64,000 nt of DNA from Thermodesulfobacteriota bacterium (GTDB lineage: Bacteria; Desulfobacterota; Desulfobacteria; Desulfobacterales; C00003060), in assembly GCA_034189385.1 (NCBI GenBank), contig JAXHVD010000005.1:1-64000 (forward strand), written 5' to 3'. Below, in pieces: positions 33,432 to 57,236 of the stretch. Every line of letters starts with the position of its first letter. Within the stretch, counting starts at the first letter, position 1. Under the pieces are notes generated by a model. The model had not been told where the DNA came from, searched no databases, and saw nothing but the letters and a program-made list of their open reading frames with translations. A program made the translations under genes and the position numbers.

Positions 33432-33569
33432 TTAGGTATACATGAGGGAATAGAGCCTGGTTCTTTCCCAGAGAGATGTAATGTCCCAAGCTTGTCTTTT
33501 AGGAAGTATCCTGACCAGGCGGCAGTAGACATGCAGGGCATTGAGGTTATGGTGTAAGAAGTTTTTCAT
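33432..33569 (-). CDS. 45-aa small protein with its own sigma54 promoter
   Basis: MKNFLHHNLNALHVYCRLVRILPKRQAWDITSLWERTRLYSLMYT; AAGGGGG RBS; -24/-12 box upstream. Confidence 0.65.
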   Translation of the reverse strand: MKNFLHHNLNALHVYCRLVRILPKRQAWDITSLWERTRLYSLMYT

Positions 33570-33604: not shown

Positions 33605-33620
33605 TGCACTGGCCATGCCA
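33605..33620 (-). promoter_or_regulatory. sigma54 promoter A (small ORF)
   Basis: TGGCATGGCCAGTGCA, GG-N10-GC. Confidence 0.75.
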
Positions 33621-33917: not shown

Positions 33918-34172
33918 TTACTCAGCGCCACCGCCCATTGCCGGCATTGCCCCGCCGGGAATGCCGTACGGGACCACAGGGTAGCAGGGATAGGGGAAAC
34001 AGGGGAAGTAAGGATAGCCCATGTAGAAGGGAAAACCGGGGTAGCAGGGATAGCCGGGGATGTACCCAGGGACATAACCCGGGCCGGGGTAACAACCACC
34101 TGCCACCTCACTCATAGCCTTGCCGTTTAGTTCCTTGTCCATTTCCAAATCCTTGATTTTGACCTTTTTCAT
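33918..34172 (-). CDS. Double-glycine leader precursor peptide 1 (Tyr/Pro/Gly/Cys-rich core)
   Basis: MKKVKIKDLEMDKELNGKAMSEVAGG then CYPGPGYVPGYIPGYPCYPG...; AGGAGAAGG RBS; sigma54 promoter and terminator. Confidence 0.88.
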   Translation of the reverse strand: MKKVKIKDLEMDKELNGKAMSEVAGGCYPGPGYVPGYIPGYPCYPGFPFYMGYPYFPCFPYPCYPVVPYGIPGGAMPAMGGGAE

Positions 34173-34224
34173 TTTCCTTCTCCTTTCTTTTTGTTTTTTG
34201 CTGGCGTTTGGTTTACTGTTGGTC

Positions 34225-34240
34225 TGCATCCCCCGTGCCA
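34225..34240 (-). promoter_or_regulatory. sigma54 promoter B (precursor 1)
   Basis: TGGCACGGGGGATGCA, GG-N10-GC. Confidence 0.8.
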
Positions 34241-34348
34241 ACACCGTCGCCAATATTGGATGAACAGTGATAAGTATTTATCATTCAACATCAATTTTGA
34301 ATAAGGGCCTTTTGGGGGAAGCTCCGTATTTTCCAGGTCTCTAAATCT

Positions 34349-34400
34349 TGTTGCTTTTTTTGCAACACATCTGGCATGATCTGTTTGTTCACTGCCAACG
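34349..34400. promoter_or_regulatory. Tandem putative activator sites for promoter B
   Basis: TGTTGCTTTTTTTGCAACA with perfectly palindromic arms (34349) and TGTTTGTTCACTGCCAACG (34382), 33 bp apart. Confidence 0.7.
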
Positions 34401-34653
34401 CTTCTGTTGAGTCGAAGCATTCTGTTGTCCCTTTGCTTGTGACAAGAAGAGTCAAAACCCCTTGATTTGGAGGGATGAAATGGCCATTTTGGGATTGTCT
34501 TTTCATTGAATCTCTGGTATTTGAGATTTTGGCAGTTTGACACTTTCAGAGCACCAGCAACCGTTTTTCCCATAAACAAACAAGTTGTGAAGATCTTGCC
34601 GCTTGGCCTGACAGAACATTCTTTGTGCTGTTCCGTGCCTAAGCGTTAAGGTG

Positions 34654-34772
34654 TTGAACCGAATAAGCGAGCGCATTCCCCGCTGCTTGCGGCGGGGTTA
34701 GCGAGTGTATAGTTAAGATGACAACATCCTTGCGGTGAAGATTCCCCGTGGCTTGCCGCGGGGAGGGTTCAA
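34654..34772. mobile_element. Non-autonomous double-hairpin element (IS200/IS605- or REP-like)
   Basis: Two copies of CCCCG..GCTTGC.GCGGGG hairpins bounded by TTGAA...TTCAA. Confidence 0.6.
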
Positions 34773-34865
34773 TTCATCATTATTCGTGCTCGTGGCTGTA
34801 TGCCGTTGCATCGGGCGCCTCGTCAGTTCCCTGTGTCTTTCAATTGCATTGATCTGTGAGGTACA

Positions 34866-35549
34866 TTGAGAAGGCCCCTTTCCGTTGGATACTTGGCGCT
34901 CCTGCCGTCTATCATTGCCATCCTTGCCTCTGCAGCTATTGCCGAAGATCGATCTGAAAAAGAGATTTGGCAGCTATCCCCCGACTATGAGCTCATGAAG
35001 CCCAAAGTGATTGCGGTGGTTCCCATGGACAACTTCTCTTTGGAGCCCAACGTTGAGAAGGCCTTGTACCAGGAGGTCTATGAACGATTGAAGGTGAAGG
35101 GATACATGAGGATTGCGGCCGAAAAAGTAGATGAGGTCATGAAAGAGCTCGGTATTCAAACGCCTGGTCAACTGGCGGGGATTTCACTCGCCAGGCTTGG
35201 GAAAAAACTTAAGTGTGAGGCTGTGTTGATGGGGCAGATCGAGCAGTCTGGCACGATCCATAAAGGGATTTATGACGCTGTAGCAGTCTCTTGTTCTCTT
35301 AGGCTGGTGGACTGCGCCACGGGGAGAATGCTCTGGCAAACGGAGCAGTGGAGAGCCGCCCACAGACAGTGGCAGGTGGATCCGATTAATCTATTTATCA
35401 ATGTTGCCGCCCATGAAAAGGCCTCACGTGAAAAGAGAGTGGCCTGCCTCGTCCATGAGATGCTGAAGACATTGCCCCAGGGCCACGTCGATGTGCAAGT
35501 TGGCGACCTTTTAAATCAAGCCCAGGAGATCCCAGCAAACCAACCGTAG
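34866..35549 (+). CDS. GNA1162/DUF799-like exported protein (CsgG/TolB-N-like fold)
   Basis: Signal peptide; PKVIAVVPMDNFS, L..KGY, EAVLMGQI, RLVDCATGRMLWQ. Confidence 0.7.
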   Translation: MRRPLSVGYLALLPSIIAILASAAIAEDRSEKEIWQLSPDYELMKPKVIAVVPMDNFSLEPNVEKALYQEVYERLKVKGYMRIAAEKVDEVMKELGIQTPGQLAGISLARLGKKLKCEAVLMGQIEQSGTIHKGIYDAVAVSCSLRLVDCATGRMLWQTEQWRAAHRQWQVDPINLFINVAAHEKASREKRVACLVHEMLKTLPQGHVDVQVGDLLNQAQEIPANQP

Positions 35550-35602
35550 AATAGTATGTTGGTACACCCCGCTTTTCGGACCGGTATGATCGGAGGAAAA
35601 AG

Positions 35603-37018
35603 ATGAAGGCTTCACTGGCAATCAGGTTCTCTCTATTGATGGTGACGGTCCTAAGTGCATGCTCTGTGGGGCCCCAATATGAACGCCCGAAGCTTGAGGA
35701 AAAGAAGGCTTGGGGTGAAACAGAAGCTGCCGAATTAGGGCCCTGCCGAGTCATACAGATGGATTGGTGGACGGGTTTTGGCGATCCTTATCTTAACAAA
35801 TTGGTCCAAGAGGCTATCTCAGGCAGTTTTGACTTGAAGATTCTGCTCGGACGTATCCAGGAAGCAGGTGCTACGATTAAAGGGGCTCGGGCGCAACTGA
35901 TGCCTTCTCTAGACTTGTCCACAAAGGCAGAGTTTAGTCGGGCGGAAGTGCCTGACTTCGGTGGCGGTCACACGGTGGCTGACTCTCAACAGGCCACCGG
36001 ACAGACGAGTTTGAGTTGGGAAATAGACATGTGGGGCAAGAAGAGGAGAGAGTATGCAGCAACCAAAGCTGAATATGAAGCCAGTCAAGCTGACTATCGG
36101 GCAGGATATCTAAAGCTGGTTTCGGAGCTGGCAATGGCCTATTTTCAGATCCGCCAGATTGATGAGCAGTCCCGTATGACGGACAGGTCCCATGGACAAT
36201 ACAATCAAATACTGACCATCTACCAAAACCAATACGCTGAAGGCCTTGTTCCTCAGTGGAAAGTGCTGCGGCAAGAGGCAGAAGTGAAAAGGCTGAATCA
36301 GGATTTGTTGGAACTTGAAAGGGTGCGAAAGAGGCTTGAAAACAGAATAGCCACTTTGTTGGGCCGGCCTGCAGGGGATTTGAAAATTCCCCGTGCCAAC
36401 CTGAGACAAAACCTGCGGCCCGTGAAGGTGCCTGTGGGCCTTCCCTCTGACCTTCTGTCCCGACGTCCGGACATTGTGGCAGCCGAATACCGCCTCATTA
36501 AGGCAACCCATAACGTAGGTGCGGCCGAAGCCGCCAGGCTCCCATCTTTTGGTCTGACCGGCTCTGGCAGCTTAGTGAGTGAAAGCCTCAAGGGGCTGCT
36601 CACGGGCACCTGGGCGCTGTCCATCGCACCAGCCGTGTCCATGCCGCTTTTTGATGGTGGCAGTCGCAAGGCTGACGTTGCTGCAAAACAAGCACGAGCA
36701 CAAGTAACCCAAGAGGTGTATCGCAAGACAGTAATGACAGCCTTTGAAGAGGTGGAGAACGCTTTGGTAAATCTGGAGAGTCGACAAAAGCAGCAGGCTG
36801 TCCTGAAGGAGAAGCTCGACGGGCTGAAACAGGTTCGATCTCAAACCACCGCCAAATTTGAACTTGGCTTGATATCCCAATTACAGGTTCTAGACATCGA
36901 GCGGGAGCTTTATGCAGCTGAGAAGTCGCTTCTGCAGATGCATCGTTACCTCTTGGATGATACCGTCTCTCTCTTTAAGGCCCTGGGCGGCGGCTGGGGC
37001 AAGGTCACAGTGAAGTAG
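35603..37018 (+). CDS. Outer membrane efflux factor lipoprotein (NodT/OprM family)
   Basis: Lipobox LSAC-SVGP.YERP; WW..F.DP.L..LV; PSDLLSRRPDI.AAE; LFKALGGGW. Confidence 0.95.
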   Translation: MKASLAIRFSLLMVTVLSACSVGPQYERPKLEEKKAWGETEAAELGPCRVIQMDWWTGFGDPYLNKLVQEAISGSFDLKILLGRIQEAGATIKGARAQLMPSLDLSTKAEFSRAEVPDFGGGHTVADSQQATGQTSLSWEIDMWGKKRREYAATKAEYEASQADYRAGYLKLVSELAMAYFQIRQIDEQSRMTDRSHGQYNQILTIYQNQYAEGLVPQWKVLRQEAEVKRLNQDLLELERVRKRLENRIATLLGRPAGDLKIPRANLRQNLRPVKVPVGLPSDLLSRRPDIVAAEYRLIKATHNVGAAEAARLPSFGLTGSGSLVSESLKGLLTGTWALSIAPAVSMPLFDGGSRKADVAAKQARAQVTQEVYRKTVMTAFEEVENALVNLESRQKQQAVLKEKLDGLKQVRSQTTAKFELGLISQLQVLDIERELYAAEKSLLQMHRYLLDDTVSLFKALGGGWGKVTVK

Positions 37019-37056
37019 CGTGAGAAAGTAGAATTTTGACCGGAGACATTTTTCCT

Positions 37057-39108
37057 ATGAAAGTCATCCTGCAGGCCGAGCCAAATACGGGTATCCAAGA
37101 TATCGTCATCGAGGGCTTGCCTTTTGTGATCGGCCGCGGCGAAGGCAAGTTTTCGCAGTACGAAGAGCAATTCCCGGATCAGCTAAAGAAGCTTTCCAGG
37201 CGGCATGCCCGGATCTTCGTCGAGGGGGGCAGACTGTACATAGAGGACCTGGGCAGCACCAACGGCACTTTTTTGGGCGGACAACGGCTTCATGATCAGC
37301 CCATGCCTCTTGGAAATGGGGACGCTATAGCCTTTGGCGCTTTCTTTAAATACGTGATTTACATAGATCAACCTGAGACGAAATCGGCGGAAAGCCGGCC
37401 CGGCGGGGAAAGCACCATATACGTGTCGGACGCTTCCTCCTTCTTGGGCATGCTAGCCTCGGAGAAGAAAGCAGATCAGGGCCCTTCTTCAGGCGGCCGC
37501 CAAGAAACCTCCTCCCAATCCTCTATTCCGTGTGCGGGCACCCATTCGAAACTTAAGGACAAGAAAAGACTTTTTGCCGCCTTTATCGCTGAGTTCTGGG
37601 ACAAGCCCGGAGACGGCCGGAAACGAAAATGGTACTTGCTGGGTTTGGTCGGGGTCCTCTTGGCTGCAGGGGTTGTTTCAGTGGTCGCCCTCAGTTCGCC
37701 CGAACGGAAGTTGAAGAGACTAATGAAGCAACAGCGTTACACTGAGTGTGCTCAGGTGGCTGATGCAATACTGCGGGAGGATCCTCACGATGAACGCGTG
37801 TGTGATATCGCAACAGAGGCTCTCATAAAGGGCATTTTGCCTGACTGGATGGACAAATTGAAAAGGGCACGCTTCGCTGAGGCCCGGGAATTCCTAGCCT
37901 CAGCGGCATCACGAAACGAACACAATCGTGACGGCTTAAAAGCTATAGAGTTGTTGGTTTGGGTCACAGACCTTGAAGCGTTCTTTGCCGGAAGGAAGGG
38001 CGAAACACCTGTAACCATATACCGGGACGAGGAAAAGGTAGAGTCCTTGCTCAGTCGATGGACCAAGGACAAGAACTGCAACTGCTCTCTTCTGGACCAA
38101 ATGGCAAACCACCATCCTCCATTTGCCATTTACCAGAGACAGATACACAGCGATCTAAATGCACTGAAGACCTTGGAGACGATGCGTGTTGAGCCCACCG
38201 AAGAGCTCAAGGCGGCAATAGAAAGTCAATTGGATGCGGACCGGCCTGAGGCTTTGGTTGCAACTGTAGAAAACTTCAGACGAAAGTACCCAGAGATCGG
38301 CGGAATAGAGGCATTGCAGAAAGATGTGGCTGCCTATATTGCCCTCTGGAGAGCGGTGGAGTCAAAGGAATTGTTCAGGGTGTCCTCCTTGCTTGAAGAA
38401 GACCCTTATCAGACCAAGCCATTTGTGGACAAGGTCGCCCACATTCGTGAAAAGATCCTGCCCTCGCCCGCCGTCGTTGAGGCATACAGAAGGGCCAGAG
38501 AGGCCTGGTTGGGGGGGGCTCCCAAAAAAGCCATCGCGATCCTTCAACCCCTCGTCAACGAGAAATGGGGCGAACTGGCAGAGAGGAAACTGAAACACTA
38601 TCGTCAGGTTCTAAAGGACTTCGCTGCGGTGGAAGGGTCAAGAGACAGATTAGACTACGGTGTCCTCCTGCTCTCTTTTCATAATATCCTTATTCCAAGT
38701 GAGGACGAGGTTTTCTTGAAGTTGATAGAAAAGGATTACGAGAAGATTAGAACCGAAGAGTTGAAGAAGAGTCAGGCTTCATTCATGGAGGCGCAAGCAA
38801 AATGGGATGACTACCTAAAAGGTGGTGGGATTTCGGGGCTTCTTCGCCTTGACACAAAGGTGTCTGAGGAGTTTCGAAGAAAGGCAGGACTTCTGAGAAC
38901 GGCCTTTGAGGCTTTTTCGTCAGGTGCCAGCATATATGGTCTTCTAAACAGGGAGTTGCCCGATACGTGGAAGACCCTTGAGAAGACCATTCTTGATGAA
39001 GTCCAAATCCAACGACTACGTCTTGATGATCTCAGAAACGTATTGGACCCTGCTGTATCGTCAGAGAAGGTCAAATTGCTACCGAATCCATCAGAGAGGA
39101 AAGACTGA
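37057..39108 (+). CDS. FHA-domain membrane protein with large helical C-terminal region
   Basis: IGRG..SRRHARI..EDLGSTNGTF FHA motifs; one TM (WYLLGLVGVLLAAGVVSVVAL); stop overlaps HlyD start. Confidence 0.9.
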   Translation: MKVILQAEPNTGIQDIVIEGLPFVIGRGEGKFSQYEEQFPDQLKKLSRRHARIFVEGGRLYIEDLGSTNGTFLGGQRLHDQPMPLGNGDAIAFGAFFKYVIYIDQPETKSAESRPGGESTIYVSDASSFLGMLASEKKADQGPSSGGRQETSSQSSIPCAGTHSKLKDKKRLFAAFIAEFWDKPGDGRKRKWYLLGLVGVLLAAGVVSVVALSSPERKLKRLMKQQRYTECAQVADAILREDPHDERVCDIATEALIKGILPDWMDKLKRARFAEAREFLASAASRNEHNRDGLKAIELLVWVTDLEAFFAGRKGETPVTIYRDEEKVESLLSRWTKDKNCNCSLLDQMANHHPPFAIYQRQIHSDLNALKTLETMRVEPTEELKAAIESQLDADRPEALVATVENFRRKYPEIGGIEALQKDVAAYIALWRAVESKELFRVSSLLEEDPYQTKPFVDKVAHIREKILPSPAVVEAYRRAREAWLGGAPKKAIAILQPLVNEKWGELAERKLKHYRQVLKDFAAVEGSRDRLDYGVLLLSFHNILIPSEDEVFLKLIEKDYEKIRTEELKKSQASFMEAQAKWDDYLKGGGISGLLRLDTKVSEEFRRKAGLLRTAFEAFSSGASIYGLLNRELPDTWKTLEKTILDEVQIQRLRLDDLRNVLDPAVSSEKVKLLPNPSERKD

Positions 39109-40475
39109 TGTCCCAAGAAAAACACCCAGAGGTTTTCGTGGACGCCGTGGAAGAGCACAGTGCGGAAGCCCTTGAAGTGCTCATGGAAAGGTCCTCTTTG
39201 TTAGCCCGGGGGATTATCTATCTGCTGATAGCCCTCTTAGCGTCGCTGTTTATCTGGTCTTTTTACGGCAAGGCAGATGTGATCATTAAGGCTAAAGGGC
39301 AATTGGAGCCGGCGTCTGAGGAAAGACGGGTCTATTCACCCACAAACGGTGAATTGATCGACATCTATGTGGCAGAGGGCATGCCCATATCCAAGAATGA
39401 CCTCCTGGCTCGCATCAAGGCGCCAGAAGCCATCAAGGCTGCGGCAGGAGCAGTGGAGGCAAAGATGAAACTTCAGGAAGCTGAGCGGCAAAAAGAGGTC
39501 TTTCCAGAGAAGAAGAAGATAATGGAAGAAGAGCTTGCCACCATAGCCAAACACATTGAGCAGAAAGAGAAGGAGTACAGTCAACTTAAGACAGAAGGAT
39601 TGCGGAACCTTTCGGAGAGCCAAAGACATAAACTAGAGGCAACGAGAACCAAGCTGGAAGAAGCAAGAAGCGAAAGAGATCTTGCGAAACGGACGGCGGG
39701 TACATACAAGCGCCTCTATGAGACGCCAGGCCATGGCGGCGTCTCCAGACAAGAAACGGAAAAGGCAGAAAGCACATACCTTAAGGCAAATGCCACGTAT
39801 GAGCGTTTGTTGACGGAGCTACAGAACCTGGAACTTGAGTTCAGCAAACAACATGCGGAAACGGGCAACAAGATTGACAAGACATACATTGAGCTACTGG
39901 GTATGCGTGTCAAACATGCAAACAAGAGGCAGGAAATCGCAAACGCGGAAAGCCGGATTGACGTCCAGTATCGCACGGCGCGGGCGAAGTGGGAGGCCGC
40001 TTCCCTGGTGAGTTTTGAGGACCTTGATCAAGAAACGCTAGTGATCCGTTCCCCTGTATCCGGGAAGATAACCCGGGTCTCCTTCAAGCAACAAGGAGAA
40101 AAGGTGGAAGCAACAAAAGCCCTCGTTTCCATCGCCCCGGCAGATGCCAGGGATATTCTGCGTGTTTCTATCTTGGACAAGGACCGTGGCTTCCTCAAGG
40201 TAGGCCAACCGGCAAAACTGAAGTTTGCTGCCTTTCCTTTTCAGCGCTATGGCTTCATACGGGGCAAACTGGAGTATATATCTCCCTCTGCAGAGCTCTC
40301 AAAGGACGGACAGCCGCTATACAATGGCCGGGTCAGTTTGGAACGTGACTATTTCATAGTCAACGGTGAGGAGATAAAACTGAGGTATGGCATGACTGCA
40401 GATGCGGAGATCATAGTTCAAAAGCGCAGGTTGATAGATCTGGCCTTGGATCCGGTGAGAAGACTCAAAGGCTAG
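39108..40475 (+). CDS. HlyD-family T1SS membrane fusion protein
   Basis: N-terminal TM, coiled coil, IRSPVSG, KFAAFPFQRYG, LRYGMTADAEI. Confidence 0.95.
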   Translation: MSQEKHPEVFVDAVEEHSAEALEVLMERSSLLARGIIYLLIALLASLFIWSFYGKADVIIKAKGQLEPASEERRVYSPTNGELIDIYVAEGMPISKNDLLARIKAPEAIKAAAGAVEAKMKLQEAERQKEVFPEKKKIMEEELATIAKHIEQKEKEYSQLKTEGLRNLSESQRHKLEATRTKLEEARSERDLAKRTAGTYKRLYETPGHGGVSRQETEKAESTYLKANATYERLLTELQNLELEFSKQHAETGNKIDKTYIELLGMRVKHANKRQEIANAESRIDVQYRTARAKWEAASLVSFEDLDQETLVIRSPVSGKITRVSFKQQGEKVEATKALVSIAPADARDILRVSILDKDRGFLKVGQPAKLKFAAFPFQRYGFIRGKLEYISPSAELSKDGQPLYNGRVSLERDYFIVNGEEIKLRYGMTADAEIIVQKRRLIDLALDPVRRLKG

Positions 40476-40664
40476 GGGCGGCGTGGACTGAAGGGTCGGG
40501 ATCTTACACAGTCAGCCCGACATGAATTGATCTGTGCCAGTGACCGCACTTTCACGGTCGTGGGATTCCATGTTAAGAAAGGAGGTGACCGTATTCCCGG
40601 GGGGAGGAATTTGACAGGAAAGGTAGCGCGCCTGAGTATTTATGGGTTCTTGAAGGAGGTAAAG

Positions 40665-41417
40665 ATGAGCACAGCGATCAAGATTAACGACGAGGTGGTT
40701 TCTGCAGAGCAATTTATCAATATCCTGAAAATGTCAAACGAGTTTCCTTTGCTGGCCGAGAAAGTTATCCGCGACAAGATAACGGTACAGGAGGCCAAAA
40801 AGAAAGGCATCAGTGTGTCCACCGAGGAGGTCCAGCAGGAAGCGGACGATTTCAGACGCGTTGCGGCCCTTCATCGGGCAAAGGATACGCAGGAATGGAT
40901 GGATCAGAGAGGGCTGACGCTGGATGAGTTTGAGATTTTTGTAACGGAGAGAATCTACAAGAAGAAGATGGTTGAAACCATCACGAGCGAGCAGTCCATT
41001 GAAGAGTATTTCAAGCTGAACTCGCCCAAGTTCGACAGTGCCGATATCAGGCACATCGTGGTGGACAGTGAGGCCAAGGCAAAAGAACTGATGTCTCTGC
41101 TGAGTGAAGACCCAGAGGGTTTTGGCGAGTTGGCCAAGGAGCACTCGCTTGACAATGAGACCAGAAAGACGGGAGGACAGATCGGAGGCTTGCGTCGGGG
41201 GGTGCTGCCCGATGAGGTGAGTGCCAAGGTCTTCAATGCATCTGCAGGAGATGTCGTCGGGCCCTTGGAGTTGGGCGATGGGTATTTCTACGAGATTATC
41301 CAGGTTACAGCCGTCAATCCTGCCAGCCTGGACGATTCCACCAAGGAAGAGATAGGTGAGTTACTTTACAACGACTGGCTGGAGGCACGTCTGCAAGAGC
41401 ACAGTGTTACGGTATAG
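40665..41417 (+). CDS. Parvulin/PpiC-type peptidyl-prolyl isomerase without signal peptide
   Basis: SurA-N-like helices then IRHIVV..FGELAKEHSLD..GG.IG..VFNAS.GDVVGP; AAGGAGG RBS. Confidence 0.9.
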   Translation: MSTAIKINDEVVSAEQFINILKMSNEFPLLAEKVIRDKITVQEAKKKGISVSTEEVQQEADDFRRVAALHRAKDTQEWMDQRGLTLDEFEIFVTERIYKKKMVETITSEQSIEEYFKLNSPKFDSADIRHIVVDSEAKAKELMSLLSEDPEGFGELAKEHSLDNETRKTGGQIGGLRRGVLPDEVSAKVFNASAGDVVGPLELGDGYFYEIIQVTAVNPASLDDSTKEEIGELLYNDWLEARLQEHSVTV

Positions 41418-41775
41418 TTCGTTTCTGTCCCTATAAATCGCTCTTATTCCAATGAGCGGCTTTATGCGTGGGTATTGCGCCTGGGGCTTGAAAGGAACGG
41501 CTGTGATCCGCCTATGGTGGACTGACTTCGAGACTGAGGTCAGTGCTGATTCATAAGCTGTTTATACATGGGCAGTAGCTGGGTTTCGTGAGAAGAGGAA
41601 GGTGGCTGAAACCGTGGTCCTTGCAGGCAAGGGGGAGTTGCCGCTTTTTTTTATTCCGGGGCGCCCCCCTTTTACTTCATAAAGGTTGTGGTCCCCTTAC
41701 AATAGGTTTCTTTGAGTCCATGGCTTTGACTTGCCGGAGTACATTGGCCGGCCAGATTAAACAGGAGGCCTTTCA

Positions 41776-44700
41776 TTGACAGAGTCATCCATAGTAGACT
41801 TCCTTGCTAGCGTTGAGTTCTTCTCTCCTTTTATATATCGAGAACTGGAGCAATTGGCCGGATATGCCGAGTCGTTGCACTTCGAGTTTGGGGACACCAT
41901 ATGCACCTCTGGCGACACGGCCCAAGGCCTCTTCGTCATCAAGGCGGGGCGGGTGAGACTCTTTACCGAAGACAGGGGCAAAGAGAGGAGCATAGGGGTT
42001 CGCGAACCTGGGGACACCTTTGGCGAGGTCTCGGTTTTGGAAGAGCCAACGCTCGACTATTCGGCCCGCGCCTCTAGCAAGGTGGAGATCCTTTTCTTGC
42101 CTCGCCAGCCGGTCATGGATTTGTTGGCGAAAAACGAGGCAGCAAAGGGTTTTATCGCACGATATGTGGCCTTGAAGGTGAGCGGTGCTGTGGTGACCCA
42201 GCTTTTCAACCTTCGCTCCAAGGTGGACCGCGGAGAGATCGAAGAGATTATCAAGGGCATTGGCATTAAGCGCGTGAAGGCAGGAGAGAAGATCCTTGTC
42301 CAAGAGGGCGCTGAAGATCGACGGCTGTACATCGTGCGAGAGGGCAAAGTAAGTATTGTAAAGGAGGAAGAGGGTTCGGAGTATTCTTTAATGAGTCTGG
42401 GACCAGGGGAAGTGTTCGGAGAAAAGGCCTGCCTCCTTTATTCGACGCAGCCGGCTACGGCCGTTGCAGACACGGACAGTGTCCTGATGGCCGTGCCACA
42501 AGAGACCATCCACTTCATTCTGGAGCGTAATCCTGGCCTGCGGGAGGTGTTGGAGGAACGCATCCATTTCGCCGAGAAGGAATTGGAGCGGAGAAGAAAA
42601 GTTGCCGAGCGCAGGAAAAAACGTCTTCTCTTTGACATCAAGTCCAAGCCCAAAATGGGGGAGCGCATTATCAAGCGGTTTCCCCTAGTAGAGCAGGCCG
42701 AGGAAATGGATTGCGGTGCGGCCTGTCTTGCCATGATCTGCAAGTACTATGACATCCCTGTGACCCTGGGAAAACTGAGGGAGATGGCCAATGTGACCAT
42801 TGAAGGTGCTACCATGGAAAGCCTGGCACGTGTGGGTGAATCCTTGGGCTTTGCGACAAAGGGCGTCCGATGCACCTACAAATCCATGCTCAGTTTTGAG
42901 CTTCCCTTTGTAGCACACTGGGAAGGATATCACTACATTGTGGTGTACGGCATTTCCAAGTCCCATGTTTGGGCTGCTGACCCGGGGGTGGGGTTTAGGA
43001 AGATGTCCGTGTCGGAGTTTGAACAGGGGTGGACGGGCAATAACCTGTTGTTTTCCCCCACCGGGGCCCTCGCTCAGATCGCCGTTGAGCAGTCCCCCTG
43101 GCTTCGTTTTGTCGGCTATCTCAGTCCCTTTAAGAAGATCCTTCGGGACCTCATTTTTGCGTCCCTTATTGTCCAGTTGCTGGGCCTGGCCCCTCCTGTG
43201 ATCATACAGAACATCCTGGACAGGGTCGTGGTTCACCAGAACTATCACCTCCTCCATGTCATGATCGTGGGTCTGGCAATCACGATGATATTTAGCCAGG
43301 TCACGGGGTATCTCAGCGCTTACCTGTCAAATTTCATGATCCGCAAGATGGATTTCAACATGATGTCCCACTTCTATAAACATGTGCTTTCTCTGCCGAC
43401 GAGCTTTTTTGCCAAGCGGAAGGTGGGCGACATCATGGCCCGGTTTCAAGAAAATGACACCATCAGGCGGTTCATGACAGAGACCAGTATCAGGACCCTT
43501 ATAAGCACGCTGATGGTGTTTACCTATTTCATTGTCATGTTCATGTACAATGTAAAACTGACCCTTTTGCTACTCGCCTTTTTGCCGCCCATCATCCTCC
43601 TTACCCTCTTGGCCACACCCAAATACAAGGACTACGCCCGGCGCAGTTTCTATGCCGAAGCTGATGCCCAATCCCTTCTCGTAGAAACATTGGGCGGGGC
43701 AGAGACAGTGAAAGGGACAGGCATCGAGCGACCAATGCGCCTAAAATGGGAGAAAAAGTATGTCAAGACCCTGGACCTGCGTTATCGTTGCGAAATGTTC
43801 ACCAGCCTGGTGGGGACTCTGGGCCAAACGTTAAAAGCGGCCACGACGCTTACGCTATTGTGGGTGGGGTCCAGGATGGTTCTGGCCCAGGAGCTTACCA
43901 TTGGCCAATTGATGGCTTTTAATGCCCTTATCGGCAGCGTGATGACACCCCTCATGGGCCTCGTGGGGGTTTGGGATGAGCTTCAAGAAACGCTCATTTC
44001 CATGGAGCGGCTGGGCGACGTGCTGGAGCTAGAGTCTGAGCAGAAGCCAGAAGAGGTCCCCGCCAAAGTGGTGCTTCCTGACCTGAAGGGAGACATACGC
44101 TTCGAGAATGTCTATTTTCGGTATGGTGGCAAGGAAACCCCTTATGTGCTGGAAAACATCAACATGGACATTCAGGCCGATACGACAGTGGCCATTGTTG
44201 GGCACAGCGGTTCAGGTAAAACCACACTGGCCAAAATGCTGGTGGGTTTCTATCGGCCCAGTGAAGGGAAAATATTCGTTGATGGTTATGATATTGGCAT
44301 GCTCGATGTAGAGTACTACCGTGCTCAAATTGGCTACGTCATGCAGAGTAATCTCCTCTTTTCGGGAACGGTCTCTGAAAACATTGCCGTGGGTGAGCAG
44401 AATCCGGACCCGAGACGCATTGCCGAGGCGGCCAGACTGGCTGATGCCCATGGGTTTATTGGCAACTTGCCTTTGGGTTACGAACAGGTCGTTGGTGAAA
44501 GGGGAATAGGCTTGTCCGGTGGGCAGATTCAGCGCATTTGTATTGCCCGTGCCCTTTACCGTGATTCAAGATTGTTGATTTTTGATGAAGCCACATCTGC
44601 CTTGGACAGCGAATCTGAAAGTCATATCCAGATGAATATGCGAAAGATCCTCAAGGGCAGGACTGCCATTATCATCGCCCACAGACTGAGCACCGTCATG

Positions 44701-44835
44701 CATGCTGACAGGATACTGGTCCTCTATGATGGGGCTATTGTGGAGGAAGGAAACCATCAAGAGCTGTTAGAGAGAAAGGGCATGTACTTTCATCTTGTCC
44801 AGAAACAGATATCTTCGGGAGAGATTAAGTCATGA
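41776..44835 (+). CDS. Peptidase-containing ABC transporter (2x cNMP-binding, C39, TMD, NBD)
   Basis: Two CRP-type domains (GDTFGE, GEVFGE); QAEEMDCGAACL, HYIVVY, ADP catalytic triad intact; GHSGSGKT, LSGGQ, IFDEATS; TTG start after AGGAGG. Confidence 0.95.
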   Translation: MTESSIVDFLASVEFFSPFIYRELEQLAGYAESLHFEFGDTICTSGDTAQGLFVIKAGRVRLFTEDRGKERSIGVREPGDTFGEVSVLEEPTLDYSARASSKVEILFLPRQPVMDLLAKNEAAKGFIARYVALKVSGAVVTQLFNLRSKVDRGEIEEIIKGIGIKRVKAGEKILVQEGAEDRRLYIVREGKVSIVKEEEGSEYSLMSLGPGEVFGEKACLLYSTQPATAVADTDSVLMAVPQETIHFILERNPGLREVLEERIHFAEKELERRRKVAERRKKRLLFDIKSKPKMGERIIKRFPLVEQAEEMDCGAACLAMICKYYDIPVTLGKLREMANVTIEGATMESLARVGESLGFATKGVRCTYKSMLSFELPFVAHWEGYHYIVVYGISKSHVWAADPGVGFRKMSVSEFEQGWTGNNLLFSPTGALAQIAVEQSPWLRFVGYLSPFKKILRDLIFASLIVQLLGLAPPVIIQNILDRVVVHQNYHLLHVMIVGLAITMIFSQVTGYLSAYLSNFMIRKMDFNMMSHFYKHVLSLPTSFFAKRKVGDIMARFQENDTIRRFMTETSIRTLISTLMVFTYFIVMFMYNVKLTLLLLAFLPPIILLTLLATPKYKDYARRSFYAEADAQSLLVETLGGAETVKGTGIERPMRLKWEKKYVKTLDLRYRCEMFTSLVGTLGQTLKAATTLTLLWVGSRMVLAQELTIGQLMAFNALIGSVMTPLMGLVGVWDELQETLISMERLGDVLELESEQKPEEVPAKVVLPDLKGDIRFENVYFRYGGKETPYVLENINMDIQADTTVAIVGHSGSGKTTLAKMLVGFYRPSEGKIFVDGYDIGMLDVEYYRAQIGYVMQSNLLFSGTVSENIAVGEQNPDPRRIAEAARLADAHGFIGNLPLGYEQVVGERGIGLSGGQIQRICIARALYRDSRLLIFDEATSALDSESESHIQMNMRKILKGRTAIIIAHRLSTVMHADRILVLYDGAIVEEGNHQELLERKGMYFHLVQKQISSGEIKS

Positions 44836-46100
44836 AAACGGGCTCTGTGGTATCCTTTGCTCGGCTCTTAGAGCGTATTGAGATTCTCCGTTCGGGCCTC
44901 CGCTGGGCCCCCCAGCTTGACCGTACGGGGGTCCAGAGGATCTTAAGGCAGGTGAACAAGTTACGCGAGGACGTCCTACTGCTTTCTGGGGTGGAAAGAT
45001 ACAAAAAGCGTATGCGTGAGAAGGCCCCGCCGAAGCCCAAGGCTGCTAAGAAGAGACTTCAGGCGCTCATGGACCGCAACTTTGTCTTTGAAGGGGTTTT
45101 TGGCGAAAACCCAAAGCTGCTGGAAGCCTTGGAAACAGTGGAAAGAGCTGCACGGACAGAGTTGCCCATCTTGATCGAAGGCGAGAGCGGCACAGGCAAA
45201 GAATTACTTGCCAAGCTCATCCACGCTGGAAGTGACCGGTCGGAGAAGACCTTTGTCTCCGTTAACTGTGGTGCCATCACCCCCAGTTTGCTGGAATCTG
45301 ATCTGTTCGGCCACGTCAAAGGGGCTTTCACGGGCTCTGTAAAGGACCGCAAAGGCAAGTTTGAGACCGCCAAAGACGGCATCATTTTTCTGGATGAGAT
45401 TGGTGAGCTTTCGGCGGAAAGCCAGGTCAAGCTCTTACGGGTGCTGGAAAGTGGCGAGATCCAGAGAGTCGGCTCAGATGAGGTCATTCGGGTAAACACC
45501 CGCGTCCTTGCAGCCACAAACCGCAACTTGTACCAGATGACGGCAGACGGGCAGTTCCGAGAGGACTTGTACTACCGTTTGAGCGTCATTTCCGTCACGT
45601 TACCCCCTCTTCGCGAGCGTACCGATGAGATCCCCCTGCTTATAGACTACTTCTGTGCCGAGGCATCGGAGAAGTTGAATCGTCCTGCTGTGAGGCTCTC
45701 TCCGCGACTCAGAAGATTTCTGCAAAAACACCCTTTTCCAGGAAACATCCGGGAGCTGCGAAACATCATCTACCGTGTAGCCTGTCTGGCCGATGAAGTG
45801 GCGGACCTAAGAGATCTGCCGGAGACCATACGCCCTTCGTCAGTGGGGCCCCAAGACGCAGTTGAAGGGCGGGCCCCAAGCCGATTTACTACCCTGGCCG
45901 AGGCCAGGAAGGCGGCTACCGACGCAGCGGAAAAAGAGTTTCTGGAAGAACACCTGACACAGACCCATGGAAACGTGACGCAGTTGGCCAAACACCTGGA
46001 GATGAATCGTTCCTACCTTCAGACGCTACTAAAGAGCCATGGGCTGCGGGCGAAAGATTTCAAAGGCAAGGCAACGTCTACAAAGAACTCTGAAAGATGA
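44832..46100 (+). CDS. sigma54-dependent activator (bEBP) lacking a recognisable sensory domain
   Basis: GESGTGKE, GAFTGS loop, FLDEIGE, FREDLYYRL, PGNIREL, Fis-type HTH; ATGA overlap with the transporter. Confidence 0.95.
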   Translation: MKTGSVVSFARLLERIEILRSGLRWAPQLDRTGVQRILRQVNKLREDVLLLSGVERYKKRMREKAPPKPKAAKKRLQALMDRNFVFEGVFGENPKLLEALETVERAARTELPILIEGESGTGKELLAKLIHAGSDRSEKTFVSVNCGAITPSLLESDLFGHVKGAFTGSVKDRKGKFETAKDGIIFLDEIGELSAESQVKLLRVLESGEIQRVGSDEVIRVNTRVLAATNRNLYQMTADGQFREDLYYRLSVISVTLPPLRERTDEIPLLIDYFCAEASEKLNRPAVRLSPRLRRFLQKHPFPGNIRELRNIIYRVACLADEVADLRDLPETIRPSSVGPQDAVEGRAPSRFTTLAEARKAATDAAEKEFLEEHLTQTHGNVTQLAKHLEMNRSYLQTLLKSHGLRAKDFKGKATSTKNSER

Positions 46101-46122
46101 AGGGGCCCACAGGCCCCTTTTT
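46100..46122. terminator. Terminator hairpin between the convergent bEBP and precursor 2 genes
   Basis: AAGGGGCC/GGCCCCTT stem followed by T-run on the plus strand. Confidence 0.7.
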
Positions 46123-46136
46123 GCTCTTTGTGACAG

Positions 46137-46364
46137 CTAAGCGCCCCAGCCGCCCCATGGCATGCCCCAGCCGCCCCATGGGTTTCCCCACCAGCCGGTA
46201 CCCCAGGAGGTGGAGCTGCTGCTTCTGCCGCCGCCGCCCCAGGGGGTCCACCACCAGCTCGAGCTGGAGCGCTGACTCCACCACCAACCGCCTGTCAAGC
46301 TCTTCAACGCCTCTTTGTCGAGCTCCATGTTCTTTTCCAGGTCCTTAACTTCAATGTTTGCCAT
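46137..46364 (-). CDS. Double-glycine leader precursor peptide 2 (Trp/Gly/Ser-rich core)
   Basis: MANIEVKDLEKNMELDKEALKSLTGG then WWWSQRSSSSWWWTPWGGGG...PWGGWGMPWGGWGA; AAGGAGA RBS; sigma54 promoter. Confidence 0.9.
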   Translation of the reverse strand: MANIEVKDLEKNMELDKEALKSLTGGWWWSQRSSSSWWWTPWGGGGRSSSSTSWGTGWWGNPWGGWGMPWGGWGA

Positions 46365-46430: not shown

Positions 46431-46446
46431 TGCACTGCTCATGCCA
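46431..46446 (-). promoter_or_regulatory. sigma54 promoter C (precursor 2)
   Basis: TGGCATGAGCAGTGCA, GG-N10-GC. Confidence 0.8.
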
Positions 46447-46712: not shown

Positions 46713-46764
46713 TGTTTGCAAAAAAGTAACATTTTGGTTTTCATTTGTTCTTCTAAACACAACA
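46713..46764. promoter_or_regulatory. Tandem putative activator sites for promoter D
   Basis: TGTTTGCAAAAAAGTAACA (46713) and TGTTCTTCTAAACACAACA (46746), 33 bp apart. Confidence 0.65.
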
Positions 46765-46874
46765 CAAACCAGACGTGAAGATTGGTCAAGTCGATCTGAA
46801 ACGACTTGCCGGGTTCGACATTTAATAGACATGATAACTGCTTATGGAAGAGCATGGGGGGACAGCCCGTAGGT

Positions 46875-46890
46875 TGGCACGGTAGATGCG
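46875..46890 (+). promoter_or_regulatory. sigma54 promoter D (towards the kinase operon)
   Basis: TGGCACGGTAGATGCG, GG-N10-GC. Confidence 0.75.
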
Positions 46891-47218
46891 ATGTAAATGA
46901 AACGAAGGAACCCTGAGGGGGCGAGGCGGATCTTCTCTGACTAAAGGTCGCTGCCGGTCTGCATGGCAGAGGCACCTACAGTGGTAGGTGAAAAAAGAGG
47001 GCACTGGCGGCATCGGGGGCAGAGCGGAGAGGGGTCCGAATGTTCTTGGCTCCATGAGGGTGTGGCCATTTTTTTGAGGCCAGCCGGCTATTGTTTTTTT
47101 GGAATCTTTGGTATATGAGATGACATAGTGAGGGGAAATAGTGGCTCTAGCCAATGAAATCTGCACGTACTACTCTGTGCAGTTTACTCCTCAGATACCG
47201 CAGATAGACTGGCCTCTT

Positions 47219-48952
47219 ATGTCCGAAGATGAAACCAAAATTAAGTCAGCTCTTGGTAAGAAGTATGAGATCAAGAGCCTGATCAACAGCGGAGGGATGG
47301 GTGCCGTCTACTTGGGCATCCATCGGGCCCTCGATAGGCCCGTGGCTATAAAGATCATCCATCAGGAGTTGAGCAAGGATGAGCAGCTCAGGAGGAGGTT
47401 CTGCCAAGAGGCCAAGTTGGCCGCAAGTCTCGATCATCCTGTCATCATTGACGTATACGATTTTGGCAGCAAAGATGATTTTGACTATATCATTATGCCC
47501 TATGTTGAGGGTAAAACGCTCCAAGACCGGCTCAAGGAAGCGGGCAAATTCGGAGTGCAGGAATGCTTAAGATTGATGATCAAACTAACAGATGCCCTTT
47601 GTTATGCACACAAGAAGAACGTGGTGCATCGGGACATCAAGCCATCAAATGTCATGATAGATAACCATGGACATCTTGTTCTCACTGATTTCGGCATCTC
47701 CAAGGACATGGGGGATCTTGGGCTTACTGTTCCCGGGAAAGTGCTCGGATCGCCGAAATACATGAGCCCTGAGCAGATTAGAGGGGAGGATGTGGACGGC
47801 AGAAGCGATCTGTACTCCTTGGGCTTGGTTTTCTACGAAATGATTACGGGTAAACATCCTTTTGAGGGCAAGGATGCCACCTCCATTTACTACGCCCAGG
47901 CCCACGAGATTCCCCCCAGGCCGGAAGAGTCTGTACTCGAAATCCCCGGTCAAGTGGGGGATATCATCATGAAGCTCCTTGAGAAGTCCCCGGAACAAAG
48001 GTACCAAGACAGTGGTCAATTGCTGAGGGATTTGGAGGGCCTTGGCCCTGGTCCTCCCAAGGAGCTAAGGATAGATGTCGATGCAACGTTGGTAGACCCC
48101 GAAACAGGACCTGATGGGAGGGGCAAGCCTTCTGCCCAGGACGCGAAGAAAGAAATCTCTCCATTAGGAAGGCCCAATGAAATGGCCGACGGTCTTGCCG
48201 AACAAGCACAGCCTTCGGCGAAAGACAGGAAGACTCCCAGATGGATGGTCCCTGCACTGGGAGCGACTCTAGTAGTTGTGGTCGGCATTGTGTGGGTCAT
48301 GCTCATGCCATCGACAAAAGACCCTGGGCCAAGCCCGACAGACAATCAGTCTCCACAAAGCCTTGAGAAAGAAAATGGGTCAAGCCTCTCTTCAATGGGT
48401 GTGGAAGTCCTCAAATCGGAAACGGAGAAGGAGTTGAGCTCTGAGCTGACTCAGGGTCTGGGGGCCAAACCCTCATTCGATTCAGTAGTAGAACGCTTGC
48501 TGGTCCTTGCTCAAGACAGAGAGGCCGTCTTTCTTCGGCTGTCAGTAGACAAGCCGAATTTTAAAATCGGCGAATCCATTTCCTACCATTTTCGATCAGA
48601 CAAGGCCTGCTATTTGGCATTGCTCAGTCTTACCACCGGCGGGGAACTCATTCAGGTTTTTCCCAACAAGTTCAACCCGGACCAATATATAGAGGCGAAA
48701 AGGGATTATGCCATTCCTGGAGAGAAGATGGATTTTGAATTGCATATTACAGGGCCGCCAGGGGAAGAAGAGCTTCTGGCCTTCGCAGCCGATGCGCCCT
48801 TTGACCTTTTCTCTGCCAGCTTTGAAGCTCAGCCCTTCTTCCAGGTGGACAAGGGTGACCAAAGGATACTGGATAGAATCATTAACAGAATACAAGAAAT
48901 GGAGAGAATCAACGTCGCACAGAGGCGTGTAAGCTATACAATAAGTGACTAA
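47219..48952 (+). CDS. Hanks-type Ser/Thr kinase with TM and C-terminal DUF4384-like domain
   Basis: GGMGAVY, VAIK, HRDIKPSN, DFG, GSPKYMSPEQ; TM; FKIGESI...IQVFPN...GPPGEE. Confidence 0.93.
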   Translation: MSEDETKIKSALGKKYEIKSLINSGGMGAVYLGIHRALDRPVAIKIIHQELSKDEQLRRRFCQEAKLAASLDHPVIIDVYDFGSKDDFDYIIMPYVEGKTLQDRLKEAGKFGVQECLRLMIKLTDALCYAHKKNVVHRDIKPSNVMIDNHGHLVLTDFGISKDMGDLGLTVPGKVLGSPKYMSPEQIRGEDVDGRSDLYSLGLVFYEMITGKHPFEGKDATSIYYAQAHEIPPRPEESVLEIPGQVGDIIMKLLEKSPEQRYQDSGQLLRDLEGLGPGPPKELRIDVDATLVDPETGPDGRGKPSAQDAKKEISPLGRPNEMADGLAEQAQPSAKDRKTPRWMVPALGATLVVVVGIVWVMLMPSTKDPGPSPTDNQSPQSLEKENGSSLSSMGVEVLKSETEKELSSELTQGLGAKPSFDSVVERLLVLAQDREAVFLRLSVDKPNFKIGESISYHFRSDKACYLALLSLTTGGELIQVFPNKFNPDQYIEAKRDYAIPGEKMDFELHITGPPGEEELLAFAADAPFDLFSASFEAQPFFQVDKGDQRILDRIINRIQEMERINVAQRRVSYTISD

Positions 48953-51153: not shown

Positions 51154-51882
51154 ATGTCAGAAAACAGGAGGTCCACGTTGAAAGGAAATTACACTTCAGT
51201 AAAAGTCCTGCAGTTAACGGCGCTTTCAATAGTCCTTGCGCTCTTGGGGTGTGCGGGAGCTCCGCCTGCCGCTGATCTGCCGCCAACACCGGAAGAAAAG
51301 ATGGACTGGTCCACACTGCCCAGTCCGCCACAGAAGAAGCAGCTTGTTGCTGTCGCGGGTTTTGAGAACAAGAGCACCTATTCTGCTGACAAACTCTGGG
51401 ATACATCCTCCCGCATCCTGGCAAGTTACCTGTTGCGGGCCGGATACTTCCGGGTAGTGGAATGGGAGAAGATGAAGCAGCTCTTTGACTGGGACACCTT
51501 GAGTACGGCCAGCCTGGTGAAAACGCCGGAAAATATGAAAAAAGCACAGCGTATATTGTTATGTGAGCAGTTTCTTTCCGGGTCGATCACGTATTTCGAC
51601 GTGCGACAACATGCAAGTGTGAGCGCTACTTCCAAGAAAAAGGTCATAGACACAACCATCCGGGTCGATCTACTCCTCCAAGATGCTCAGTCTGGGGAGT
51701 ATGTCTCTGCTGGCATGGGCGAACATACGGTGAGCCAGGTCTATTCAGGGGGGCTCTCAGGTGGCCAGACGGGAAGCTGGGATCCGCGCGCCGCAGATAA
51801 AGCGCTGGATATGGCCATTGGCAAGGCATTACTTGAATTGATTTCAAATTTTGACCGGCTTGTGGGACATGGGGCTTCGTAG
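51154..51882 (+). CDS. CsgG/HfaB-family lipoprotein
   Basis: Lipobox LLGC; VAVAGFENKS, L..AGYFRVVE, SGSITYFD, RVDLLLQD..SGE. Confidence 0.8.
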   Translation: MSENRRSTLKGNYTSVKVLQLTALSIVLALLGCAGAPPAADLPPTPEEKMDWSTLPSPPQKKQLVAVAGFENKSTYSADKLWDTSSRILASYLLRAGYFRVVEWEKMKQLFDWDTLSTASLVKTPENMKKAQRILLCEQFLSGSITYFDVRQHASVSATSKKKVIDTTIRVDLLLQDAQSGEYVSAGMGEHTVSQVYSGGLSGGQTGSWDPRAADKALDMAIGKALLELISNFDRLVGHGAS

Positions 51883-52314
51883 CGCCTCTTATCTGGGGCC
51901 GCAGTGTTGAATTTCCATCAAAGGAACACTGATAACCCTGCGAGCCTTCGTGGGGTGGGACATATCGATGGTCGAACAAGGAGTTTTGACGCACGGGGTT
52001 TTCGAACGCTTCCTTTCTAAAATCCTTCAACAGTTGTCAATCCTTGCTCATTATTCGATGTTCAGTCAGTCCTGGAGTGGCGTTCAGCTTCAAGTTTGCT
52101 TCCGTGTGTGAAGGGGCACGGGGGTCGTGTCTCGTCATCACGGGATACCTCTTTTTAAATCAACCGTAGTCGAAAATCAGGGGGGAGCAATGAGAAGTAA
52201 AATGGAAGGGAAGCGGGAGCCTCCAAGGCCCATTGGCACGGAGCAAGGGGTGGTAGCGTTTAGTAAAATAAAGAGTGGGCTATTTCGTTTGCCAAAGGTG
52301 AAAGGAGAGTCAGA

Positions 52315-57173: not shown

Positions 57174-57236
57174 GGGGTCGCGGCTGTCCATACCCGCCGG
57201 TGAAGGAAAGACGGAAAAGGGTGAAAGACTACGGAC

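Follow-up and report, generated by a model that had tools for sequence, protein, structure and literature searches.

In Synechococcus elongatus, the PteB system couples a C39 peptidase-containing ATP-binding cassette transporter (PCAT) with an HlyD protein and exports several small proteins with a double-glycine (GG) motif (PMC4997328, PMC9981879, PMC12267927); EbfG1-3 are amyloid, and an amyloid-forming matrix role is shown for EbfG (PMC9981879). MccAB1 of Acinetobacter baumannii is both a microcin and a biofilm amyloid, and its immunity gene is a small unannotated open reading frame (ORF) (PMC13188072). HetC of Nostoc PCC 7120 has substrates described as unknown (PMC10986499), and the Pseudomonas Fap system combines major and minor subunits with FapD, a stand-alone periplasmic C39 peptidase exported by Sec (PMC5557850). 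The locus analysed here lies in the window, a stretch of 64,000 nucleotides (nt) at G000:C45:1-64000 (contig JAXHVD010000005.1) in a 4.13 Mb, 90% complete genome of a Thermodesulfobacteriota bacterium, and encodes a predicted PCAT exporter, a sigma54 activator and small GG-leader precursors. The favoured reading, with a probability of about one half, is a dedicated type I export regulon whose cargo is unmodified, self-associating matrix or surface material.

Precursors, exporter and regulon

Precursors A and B (Table 1) each carry a 26-amino-acid (aa) GG leader. The two leaders are identical at 10 of 26 positions (38%), with V/M/L (A) and L/L/L (B) at residues -4/-7/-12, read from the sequence, as a first-pass annotation of this DNA had described. 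Its picture of nearly uncharged, aromatic low-complexity cores also holds, core A starting with CYPG and core B with WWWS, at net charges of -1 and +2, with 26-29% aromatic residues and 47-53% Gly, Ser and Pro. The same annotation had the two precursors bracketing the operon, which is correct for their positions; however, both lie on the minus strand, A divergent from and B convergent with the plus-strand operon, both are transcription units separate from it, and the system has eight precursors rather than two. The leader pattern gives eight matches in 81,194 six-frame genome segments, compared with 0-1 in each of five shuffles, and is therefore not due to chance. The proposed genome scan with a leader hidden Markov model agrees: a model built from the eight leader genes scores those eight at 48-59 bits and nothing further above 10. 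Six of the eight sit on other contigs amid unrelated genes.

The eight cores of this genome span 39-58 aa and comprise a Trp/Gly/Ser hairpin-like group (B and its paralogues on contigs C4 and C7), a group starting with CP (C1, C2, C20) and two singletons. Their net charge ranges from -2 to +2, with at most 11% charged residues and a membrane-like stretch in none, and Cys comes first in five. Other relatives are P0023 for precursor A and P0016-P0019 for precursor B. A profile search of the precursors, whose query included the window genome's cores, returned 155 clusters at 50% identity; 149 short clusters are listed, and the leader is present in 146 of them, while a few family entries look frameshifted. 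Neither the window precursors nor 30 relatives match any Pfam or NCBIfam family, bacteriocin families included, above the cut-off, and precursor B has no match among phages. Tandem, near-identical precursor copies number five in G330 and three in G689, and G331 holds 13 leader matches. Each of the three copies in G689 (L202:4546-6877) encodes an Arg/His/Cys/Tyr-rich core behind its own promoter and enhancer.

By each feature testable from sequence, the window system is a PCAT type I exporter, with C39, ABC membrane and ATPase domains in a single chain, cognate membrane fusion protein (MFP) and outer membrane factor (OMF), and co-occurring GG-leader substrates. Export of these peptides by PCAT-HlyD-OMF is well supported and highly probable. 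The plus-strand order is GNA1162-like protein, OMF, FHA protein, HlyD, PpiC, PCAT and bacterial enhancer-binding protein (bEBP). The Pfam scan of the window matches OEP, FHA, HlyD, Rotamase, two cyclic nucleotide monophosphate (cNMP) domains with C39 and ABC, and Sigma54_activat with HTH_8, in agreement with the gene content first proposed; parts beyond that proposal are the GNA1162/LpoB-like gene, six further precursors, the sigma54 promoters with their enhancer, a 45-aa ORF and a kinase-caspase unit from 47141. The C39 Cys/His/Asp set is intact, as claimed, and its motifs recur in all 27 homologous loci examined; both cNMP-like domains lack the canonical phosphate-binding Arg. A PF03412 search of the genome finds one C39, that of the window PCAT, so all eight precursors most likely use this transporter. 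The PpiC protein does not have both active-site His of an active parvulin peptidyl-prolyl isomerase; because Glu takes the place of the second in the window, as it does in 24 of 25 loci (the other has Gln), it is probably a chaperone. The FHA/helical protein is the most specific marker of the system, and its helical domain is modelled as a confident all-alpha, solenoid-like rod (predicted local distance difference test score, pLDDT, 91.6) with no PDB match at E<=0.001 in a fold search.

A sigma54 box (TGGCAY-N6-TGC) lies 53-67 nt before the ATG of six of the eight precursors, compared with 17 of 3,670 long ORFs, and the same six have TGTY-N11-RACA at 127 or 161-174 nt upstream. The genome holds 166 strict boxes; a perfect enhancer lies 115-180 nt upstream of ten, against 0.6 expected (background 0.35%), and these ten comprise the six precursors, the kinase gene at 47141, the 45-aa ORF, a 95-aa ORF and one intragenic site. 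With at most one mismatch, the enhancer occurs 120-180 nt upstream in 23 of 27 Burkholderiaceae promoters (4.5% in shuffles; maxima at 126-130 and 160-163; a promoter with a short upstream region left out). As an independent check of the pattern, seven of eight promoters from the window genome's own order carry it (shuffled 8.1%), mostly near 115-125 and 146-158, and G686, G689 and G815 show the same spacing. The bEBP loop reads GAFTG[AS] in 23 of 24 loci and GSFTGA in one, and the recognition helix of its helix-turn-helix (HTH) is conserved across phyla, which fits a conserved enhancer site. With the -24/-12 box, enhancer, bEBP and genome-encoded RpoN all present, most precursor genes are assigned to a sigma54 regulon. 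Because six of the eight share a sigma54 promoter and a common enhancer, the locus bEBP probably drives this dispersed regulon.

True homologous loci, with the order OMF-FHA-HlyD-PpiC-PCAT-bEBP and PCATs 59-64% identical, occur in Burkholderia, Paraburkholderia, Caballeronia, a Methylococcaceae metagenome-assembled genome (G331) and other Pseudomonadota; the similar betaproteobacterial neighbourhoods mentioned in the first-pass annotation do exist. A first related-loci scan with the FHA protein alone as query returned no loci; in a second, eight of 80 loci were true homologues, the remainder being unrelated FHA domains. Leader and exporter travel together. In the family of Paraburkholderia kirstenboschensis (Burkholderiaceae), the leader occurs in 51 of 199 genomes and the exporter in 50 of 198, all 50 being common to both (2-3 genomes unscored). 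The own order, with 300 genomes, gives eight with the leader, seven with the exporter and six with both; the mismatches are G071 (distant PCAT), G045 (no PCAT found in 1,200 contigs) and G056 (no leader found). In the family of G331, leader and exporter each occur in four of eight genomes, the same four, and among 290 genomes of its class in three each, two with both; G689 has weaker leaders on inspection, and a short G713 contig holds kinase, PP2C and precursor. The check for homologous loci without such leaders thus returned leaders in 50 of 50 exporter-positive Burkholderiaceae and six of seven own-order genomes.

Neither leader nor exporter was found in 150 other genomes of the phylum. The system is patchy, since the full-length FHA protein was found in none of 36 same-genus genomes. 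Close homologues of the window's proteins carry the label of Thermodesulfobacteriota metagenome-assembled genomes. The window PCAT groups with own-order PCATs in the PCAT tree (99/97 support), which argues against contamination, and loci from different phyla share the promoter, the enhancer and the C39 triad. Own-order relatives carry a shorter, FHA-less membrane protein. Joint loss of FHA and kinase was considered and is unproven: these relatives are FHA-less and kinase-free in the stretches fetched, yet DUF4384 occurs elsewhere in five of five. A second, divergent FHA-PCAT-bEBP unit lies near the main cassette in G331 (L208:8015-13167) and G540 (L210:775-5800), and the PCAT N-terminus at G303:C278 (L161:1148-4357) resembles a PpiC protein start, a possible fusion or assembly join.

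A literature search, with the supplements of microcin-mining papers outside its scope, found no description of the locus or leader. A new leader family joined to an enhancer regulon that spans phyla and to dedicated accessory proteins is a combination that appears undescribed.

Nature of the cargo

A five-step mechanism is proposed for the export of self-associating cargo. The locus bEBP would bind the paired TGTY-N11-RACA sites, which are present in the DNA, and open sigma54 promoters at most precursor genes. Precursors would be synthesized at a high level from strong ribosome-binding sites, with the PpiC-like protein keeping aggregation-prone cores unfolded. C39 would then bind the leader and cut after GG, and PCAT-HlyD-OMF would export the core in one step; the parts and catalytic residues are in place, and their activity is extrapolated from PCAT1, ComA and PteB. 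These three steps together are very likely. By analogy, the membrane-anchored helical protein may support the conduit and, through its FHA domain, allow the Ser/Thr kinase to gate it; this may resemble Fha/Ppk switching in the type VI secretion system, and the PpiC step presumably resembles SurA-type chaperoning. Outside, the uncharged aromatic Gly/Ser/Pro-rich cores may associate into fibres or a coat, a final step that we consider slightly favoured.

Fibre-like features come from ten Burkholderiaceae genomes hand-picked among the 50 positives, all with the core six genes, kinase, caspase-FGE protein, DUF4399, PP2C and an LRAT-family thiol enzyme. Class A precursors occur in 19 copies in all ten genomes (all boxed), class B in nine, class C in nine and a basic class D in ten. 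Classes A, B and C hold 20-23% N+Q and 23-24% V/I/T, are nearly uncharged with 40-58% identity, and cross-score 4-10 bits against 0-1 for shuffles, indicating that they are mutually related. The presence of three related N/Q/V/I/T-rich subunits suggests a fibre in this family. In the Atlas, class A matches unnamed clusters only. An analysis of pN/pS on cores was dropped, as GC bias compresses synonymous sites. A one-step counterpart of curli and Fap, namely an undescribed fibre-biogenesis pathway with GG-leader subunits, cytoplasmic chaperoning, PCAT export, helical-scaffold assembly and a sigma54 and phosphorylation switch, is a tentative and rather doubtful extension.

Several observations weigh against self-associating cargo and its regulon. 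Against models of the N/Q-rich classes, the window cores give negative scores; being unrelated to these classes, they do not inherit the fibre-like signal by homology. Among the 146 family cores, 42 are low-charge and low-complexity, a class that the query favoured because it held the window genome's cores (it makes up 5 of 1,000 background 50-mers); the rest divide into 37 cationic, 7 hydrophobic and 60 of other types. The AlphaFold monomer of class A shows no confident fold (pLDDT 54.7), one family core weakly matches Bacteriocin_IIc, and Cys-rich cores adjoin a redoxin gene. The LRAT-family enzyme is a candidate tailoring enzyme in the Burkholderiaceae lineage. The precursors on C2 and C4 (two of eight) lack a sigma54 box, and the genome scan places none 5' of the export operon. 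The enhancer pattern came from the six own promoters and was widened after the Burkholderiaceae ones were viewed, which makes the Burkholderiaceae counts partly circular, and related genomes are non-independent samples. Of the earlier claim of matrix or amyloid-like export, the GG-leader PCAT-HlyD-OMF route stands; self-assembly is a hypothesis at about even odds. The window cores are not homologous to the N/Q-rich cores, and family cores are diverse.

A class II microcin or bacteriocin arsenal would use the same export and regulation, with cores that kill competitors, arms-race diversity and small unrecognised immunity genes. Hypervariable cores on a single leader, the cationic share given above, and Cys-rich and bacteriocin-like types among family cores are consistent with it, as is P0119, which its source names a class IIb bacteriocin and which holds the weak Bacteriocin_IIc match. 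At G131:C710 (L155:397-1479), two precursors with short, hairpin-like Cys/Arg/Tyr-rich cores precede the redoxin gene; they are candidate disulfide beta-hairpin antimicrobial peptides, and the Cys-rich cores presumably resemble tachyplesin-like hairpins. The sole candidate immunity gene is the co-regulated 45-aa ORF behind precursor A, and a hidden immunity gene has precedent (PMC13188072). On sequence grounds, the earlier statement that there is no immunity gene is tentative. The family of the 45-aa ORF has about a dozen genome copies, mostly elsewhere, with no match in the other loci compared, and no convincing small membrane ORF lies directly 3' of any of the eight precursors. The own cores are uncharged and have no Ala/Leu-rich membrane segments, and Burkholderiaceae keep a conserved subunit set. 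An arsenal is judged unlikely. The readings are non-exclusive, MccAB1 being both toxin and fibre (PMC13188072), and the earlier opposition of matrix to bacteriocin was a false choice.

Modified peptides, with cores processed further in trans or at the newly exposed N-terminus (Cys acylation, phosphorylation by the kinase, disulfides) in a pathway resembling lipopeptides or peptides that are made on ribosomes and modified after translation (RiPPs), are judged improbable. The earlier claim of no modifying enzyme is right for the window locus, which has no LanM, YcaO, SPASM or RiPP recognition element (RRE); it fails as a general statement because an LRAT-family enzyme accompanies ten of ten Burkholderiaceae cassettes. 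These genes keep the His/His/Cys motifs and carry a sigma54 box with enhancer in six. The family is a permuted NlpC/P60 and adjoins the class B precursor (L175:11404-11952, L184:9290-9883, L188:6444-7028 and seven further genomes). Neither LRAT nor PP2C nor DUF4399 was found in the 90% complete window genome (the latter two by tblastn), and LRAT was not found in own-order or Methylococcaceae loci; the export locus has no relation to the DUF4399 gene of a Burkholderia thailandensis dataset. Cys-first cores in five of eight precursors and the likeness of PpiC to TIGR04500, 'peptide maturation system protein', also speak for tailoring, and the window genome holds three YcaO and three SPASM genes, unlinked to the locus. 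The YcaO genes, however, are separated from every precursor by at least 45 kb and lack a box with a perfect enhancer, and a PqqD/RRE search of the genome gives no match; a LanC search was silent, as was its control. Seven Burkholderiaceae and five own-order homologous loci hold 137 unassigned ORFs; with the 26 that overlap precursor genes left out, a Pfam scan of the other 111 (at least 170 aa, E<=1e-9) finds no YcaO, LanM, SPASM or RRE, and no class enzyme or RRE of known RiPP classes (lanthipeptide, YcaO, SPASM, lasso) was found in the cluster. An AsnB-like amidotransferase gene, below the lasso cyclase cut-off, is convergent with the C4 precursor (G000:C4, L003:1156-3069), and one radical SAM gene flanks the locus in G056. 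YcaO genes lie at 91-99 kb of G000:C45 (L098:6952-15097) and at L099:5853-7580, one with TPR repeats, and two are near genes that resemble dsrAB on inspection.

The cargo might instead be peptides for signalling or differentiation, a role proposed in the case of HetC (PMC10986499), with export feeding back through the cNMP-like domains, bEBP and kinase. This would fit the many regulatory parts (bEBP, FHA, kinase, phosphatase and a pair of cNMP-like domains) and the PAS histidine kinases adjoining three of eight precursor loci, but is improbable, as cores of 39-58 aa and tandem near-identical copies suggest a bulk product, the cassette has no conserved receptor, and histidine kinases are common in the window genome.

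The export regulon is a complete, testable system, comprising leader, exporter, activator, enhancer and a cargo list that annotation pipelines overlook because its genes are tiny and without family. Its frequent occurrence in Burkholderiaceae, at 50 of 198 sampled genomes, would make a new class of peptide or fibre of biofilms approachable in culturable environmental strains, and a leader carrying uncharged, cationic, Cys-rich and N/Q-rich cores would serve as a secretion tag in Gram-negative hosts. If the fibre pathway holds, major and minor subunits rich in N/Q would be in use in about one in four of the Burkholderiaceae genomes sampled. Sediment sulfate reducers would have placed other cores behind the leader, be they aromatic low-complexity, Cys-rich or cationic, which would make it a natural plug-in platform for secretion.

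Surrounding features of the window

The kinase gene at 47141 is probably the partner of the FHA protein. It is 30-33% identical to cassette kinases and two other genome kinases score equally, so its membership rests on position, layout and enhancer; none of ten Burkholderiaceae kinases has a box with enhancer, and the kinase promoter is thus not conserved. The caspase-domain protein is probably a system member. The GNA1162/LpoB-like gene is probably accessory, as it is unmatched in the homologous loci tested (Table 1).

The 45-aa ORF has no Pfam or Atlas match. Other copies of its HxLN(P/A/S)LH(V/L)YCRL family, several behind sigma54 boxes, occur on C62 (three), C23 (two), C2, C3, C4, C6, C12 and C20. 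The leaderless 95-aa ORF lies towards the other end of C45 (G000:C45:188404-188688, minus strand; L189:5405-5689) and has a sigma54 box with a perfect enhancer and no Pfam match.

The hairpin element 5' of the operon stands outside the export system; its paired GC-rich hairpins form a miniature element of very high copy in sediment metagenomes, presumably like IS200/IS605 ends. The hairpin between bEBP and precursor B is probably a terminator, and sigma70 and terminator scans perform no better than chance. Downstream of the caspase gene, 51154-53982 encodes a lipoprotein with a CsgG fold and a secreted protein of 555 aa that is rich in Thr/Gly, and 54248-59173 a second exporter of OMF-MFP-MacAB type; the genes of both stretches have no match in any of 11 homologous loci tested.

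Table 1. Coordinates of the export locus and its surroundings in the window
Feature	Position	Strand	Remarks
45-aa ORF, multi-copy HxLNxLHVYCRL small-protein family	33432..33569	-	own sigma54 promoter and enhancer; 3' of precursor A
Sigma54 -24/-12 box of 45-aa ORF	33606..33620	-	enhancer sites at -127 (one mismatch) and -160 (perfect)
Precursor A, 84 aa from ATG at 34172	33918..34172	-	26-aa GG leader 34095-34172; 58-aa Tyr/Pro/Gly/Cys core
Sigma54 box of precursor A	34226..34240	-	53 nt before ATG
Three TGTY-N11-RACA enhancer-like sites	34349..34444	.	34349 perfect (-127); 34382 one mismatch; 34426 perfect
Miniature hairpin element, high-copy	34654..34773	.	5' of operon; depth spike; joint 34656-34771; absent from related strain
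GNA1162/LpoB-like exported protein	34866..35549	+	Pfam; no match in 11 of 11 homologous loci tested
Outer membrane factor, NodT type	35603..37018	+	TIGR01845 above cut-off
FHA domain, one membrane helix, ~460-aa all-helical domain	37060..39108	+	helical domain of no known family
HlyD-type membrane fusion protein	39108..40475	+	
Cytoplasmic SurA-N/PpiC protein	40665..41417	+	TIGR04500-like, below cut-off
PCAT	41776..44835	+	two cNMP-binding-like domains, C39, ABC membrane and ATPase domains
Sigma54 enhancer-binding protein, no receiver	44832..46100	+	~90 N-terminal aa specific to the family; GAFTGS; HTH of Fis type; start overlaps PCAT stop
Hairpin between convergent bEBP and precursor B genes	46099..46120	.	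consensus scan only
Precursor B, 75 aa	46137..46364	-	26-aa GG leader 46287-46364; 49-aa Trp/Gly/Ser core
Sigma54 box of precursor B	46432..46446	-	67 nt before ATG; enhancer sites 46558 (one mismatch), 46602 (perfect)
Two perfect enhancer sites (-162, -129) and sigma54 box	46713..46889	+	box 46875-46889, facing kinase gene
Ser/Thr kinase with DUF4384	47141..48952	+	layout as in Paraburkholderia cassette kinase
Caspase-domain exported protein	49039..51123	+	homologous cassettes: different caspase-domain protein (C14 and FGE)

Relation to described systems

The system lies outside Fap, curli and known RiPP classes. Like Pseudomonas Fap, it needs a C39 peptidase, and N/Q-rich major and minor subunits are shared by the Burkholderiaceae cargo; the Fap likeness put forward earlier is otherwise weak, since Fap depends on Sec, on FapD in the periplasm and on FapF as its barrel (PMC5557850), none of which is in the window system. 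The precursors have no Fap or curli Pfam match, and the CsgG-fold match at 51154 recurs in none of 11 homologous loci.

With class II microcins, MccAB1 included, the system shares a GG leader, PCAT-MFP-OMF export and small unmodified or lightly modified cargo. It differs from them in its 26-aa leader (15-18 aa in class II microcins), in cores that are not Gly/Ala hydrophobic, in the absence of a recognised adjacent immunity gene and in having as many as 13 precursors per genome. HetC is likewise a PCAT with an N-terminal cNMP-binding domain and C39, active in HetC (PMC10986499) and intact by its residues in the window; unlike HetC, the window PCAT has two such domains, both without the canonical Arg, and evident substrates.

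The PEP-CTERM/PrsR system (PMC1569441) also combines many dispersed single-gene cargo units, sigma54, a common enhancer and one export machine, but differs in its TTTACA-containing enhancer with ~63 nt spacing, receiver-type activator and C-terminal sorting signal. The PteB/EbfG precedent invoked earlier is real (PMC4997328, PMC9981879), and the window system resembles PteB/EbfG1-4 in its C39 PCAT, HlyD and several small GG-leader cargoes, a likeness at the level of system features. Cyanobacterial plasmid PCATs are just 37-42% identical over 70% of length. In contrast to PteB/EbfG, the window system has a sigma54/bEBP regulon with enhancer, dispersed precursors, a dedicated OMF, the helical protein and PpiC, with no EbfE-like gene seen. 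In its working, the system would come closest to PteB/EbfG, and in the logic of its regulon to PEP-CTERM.

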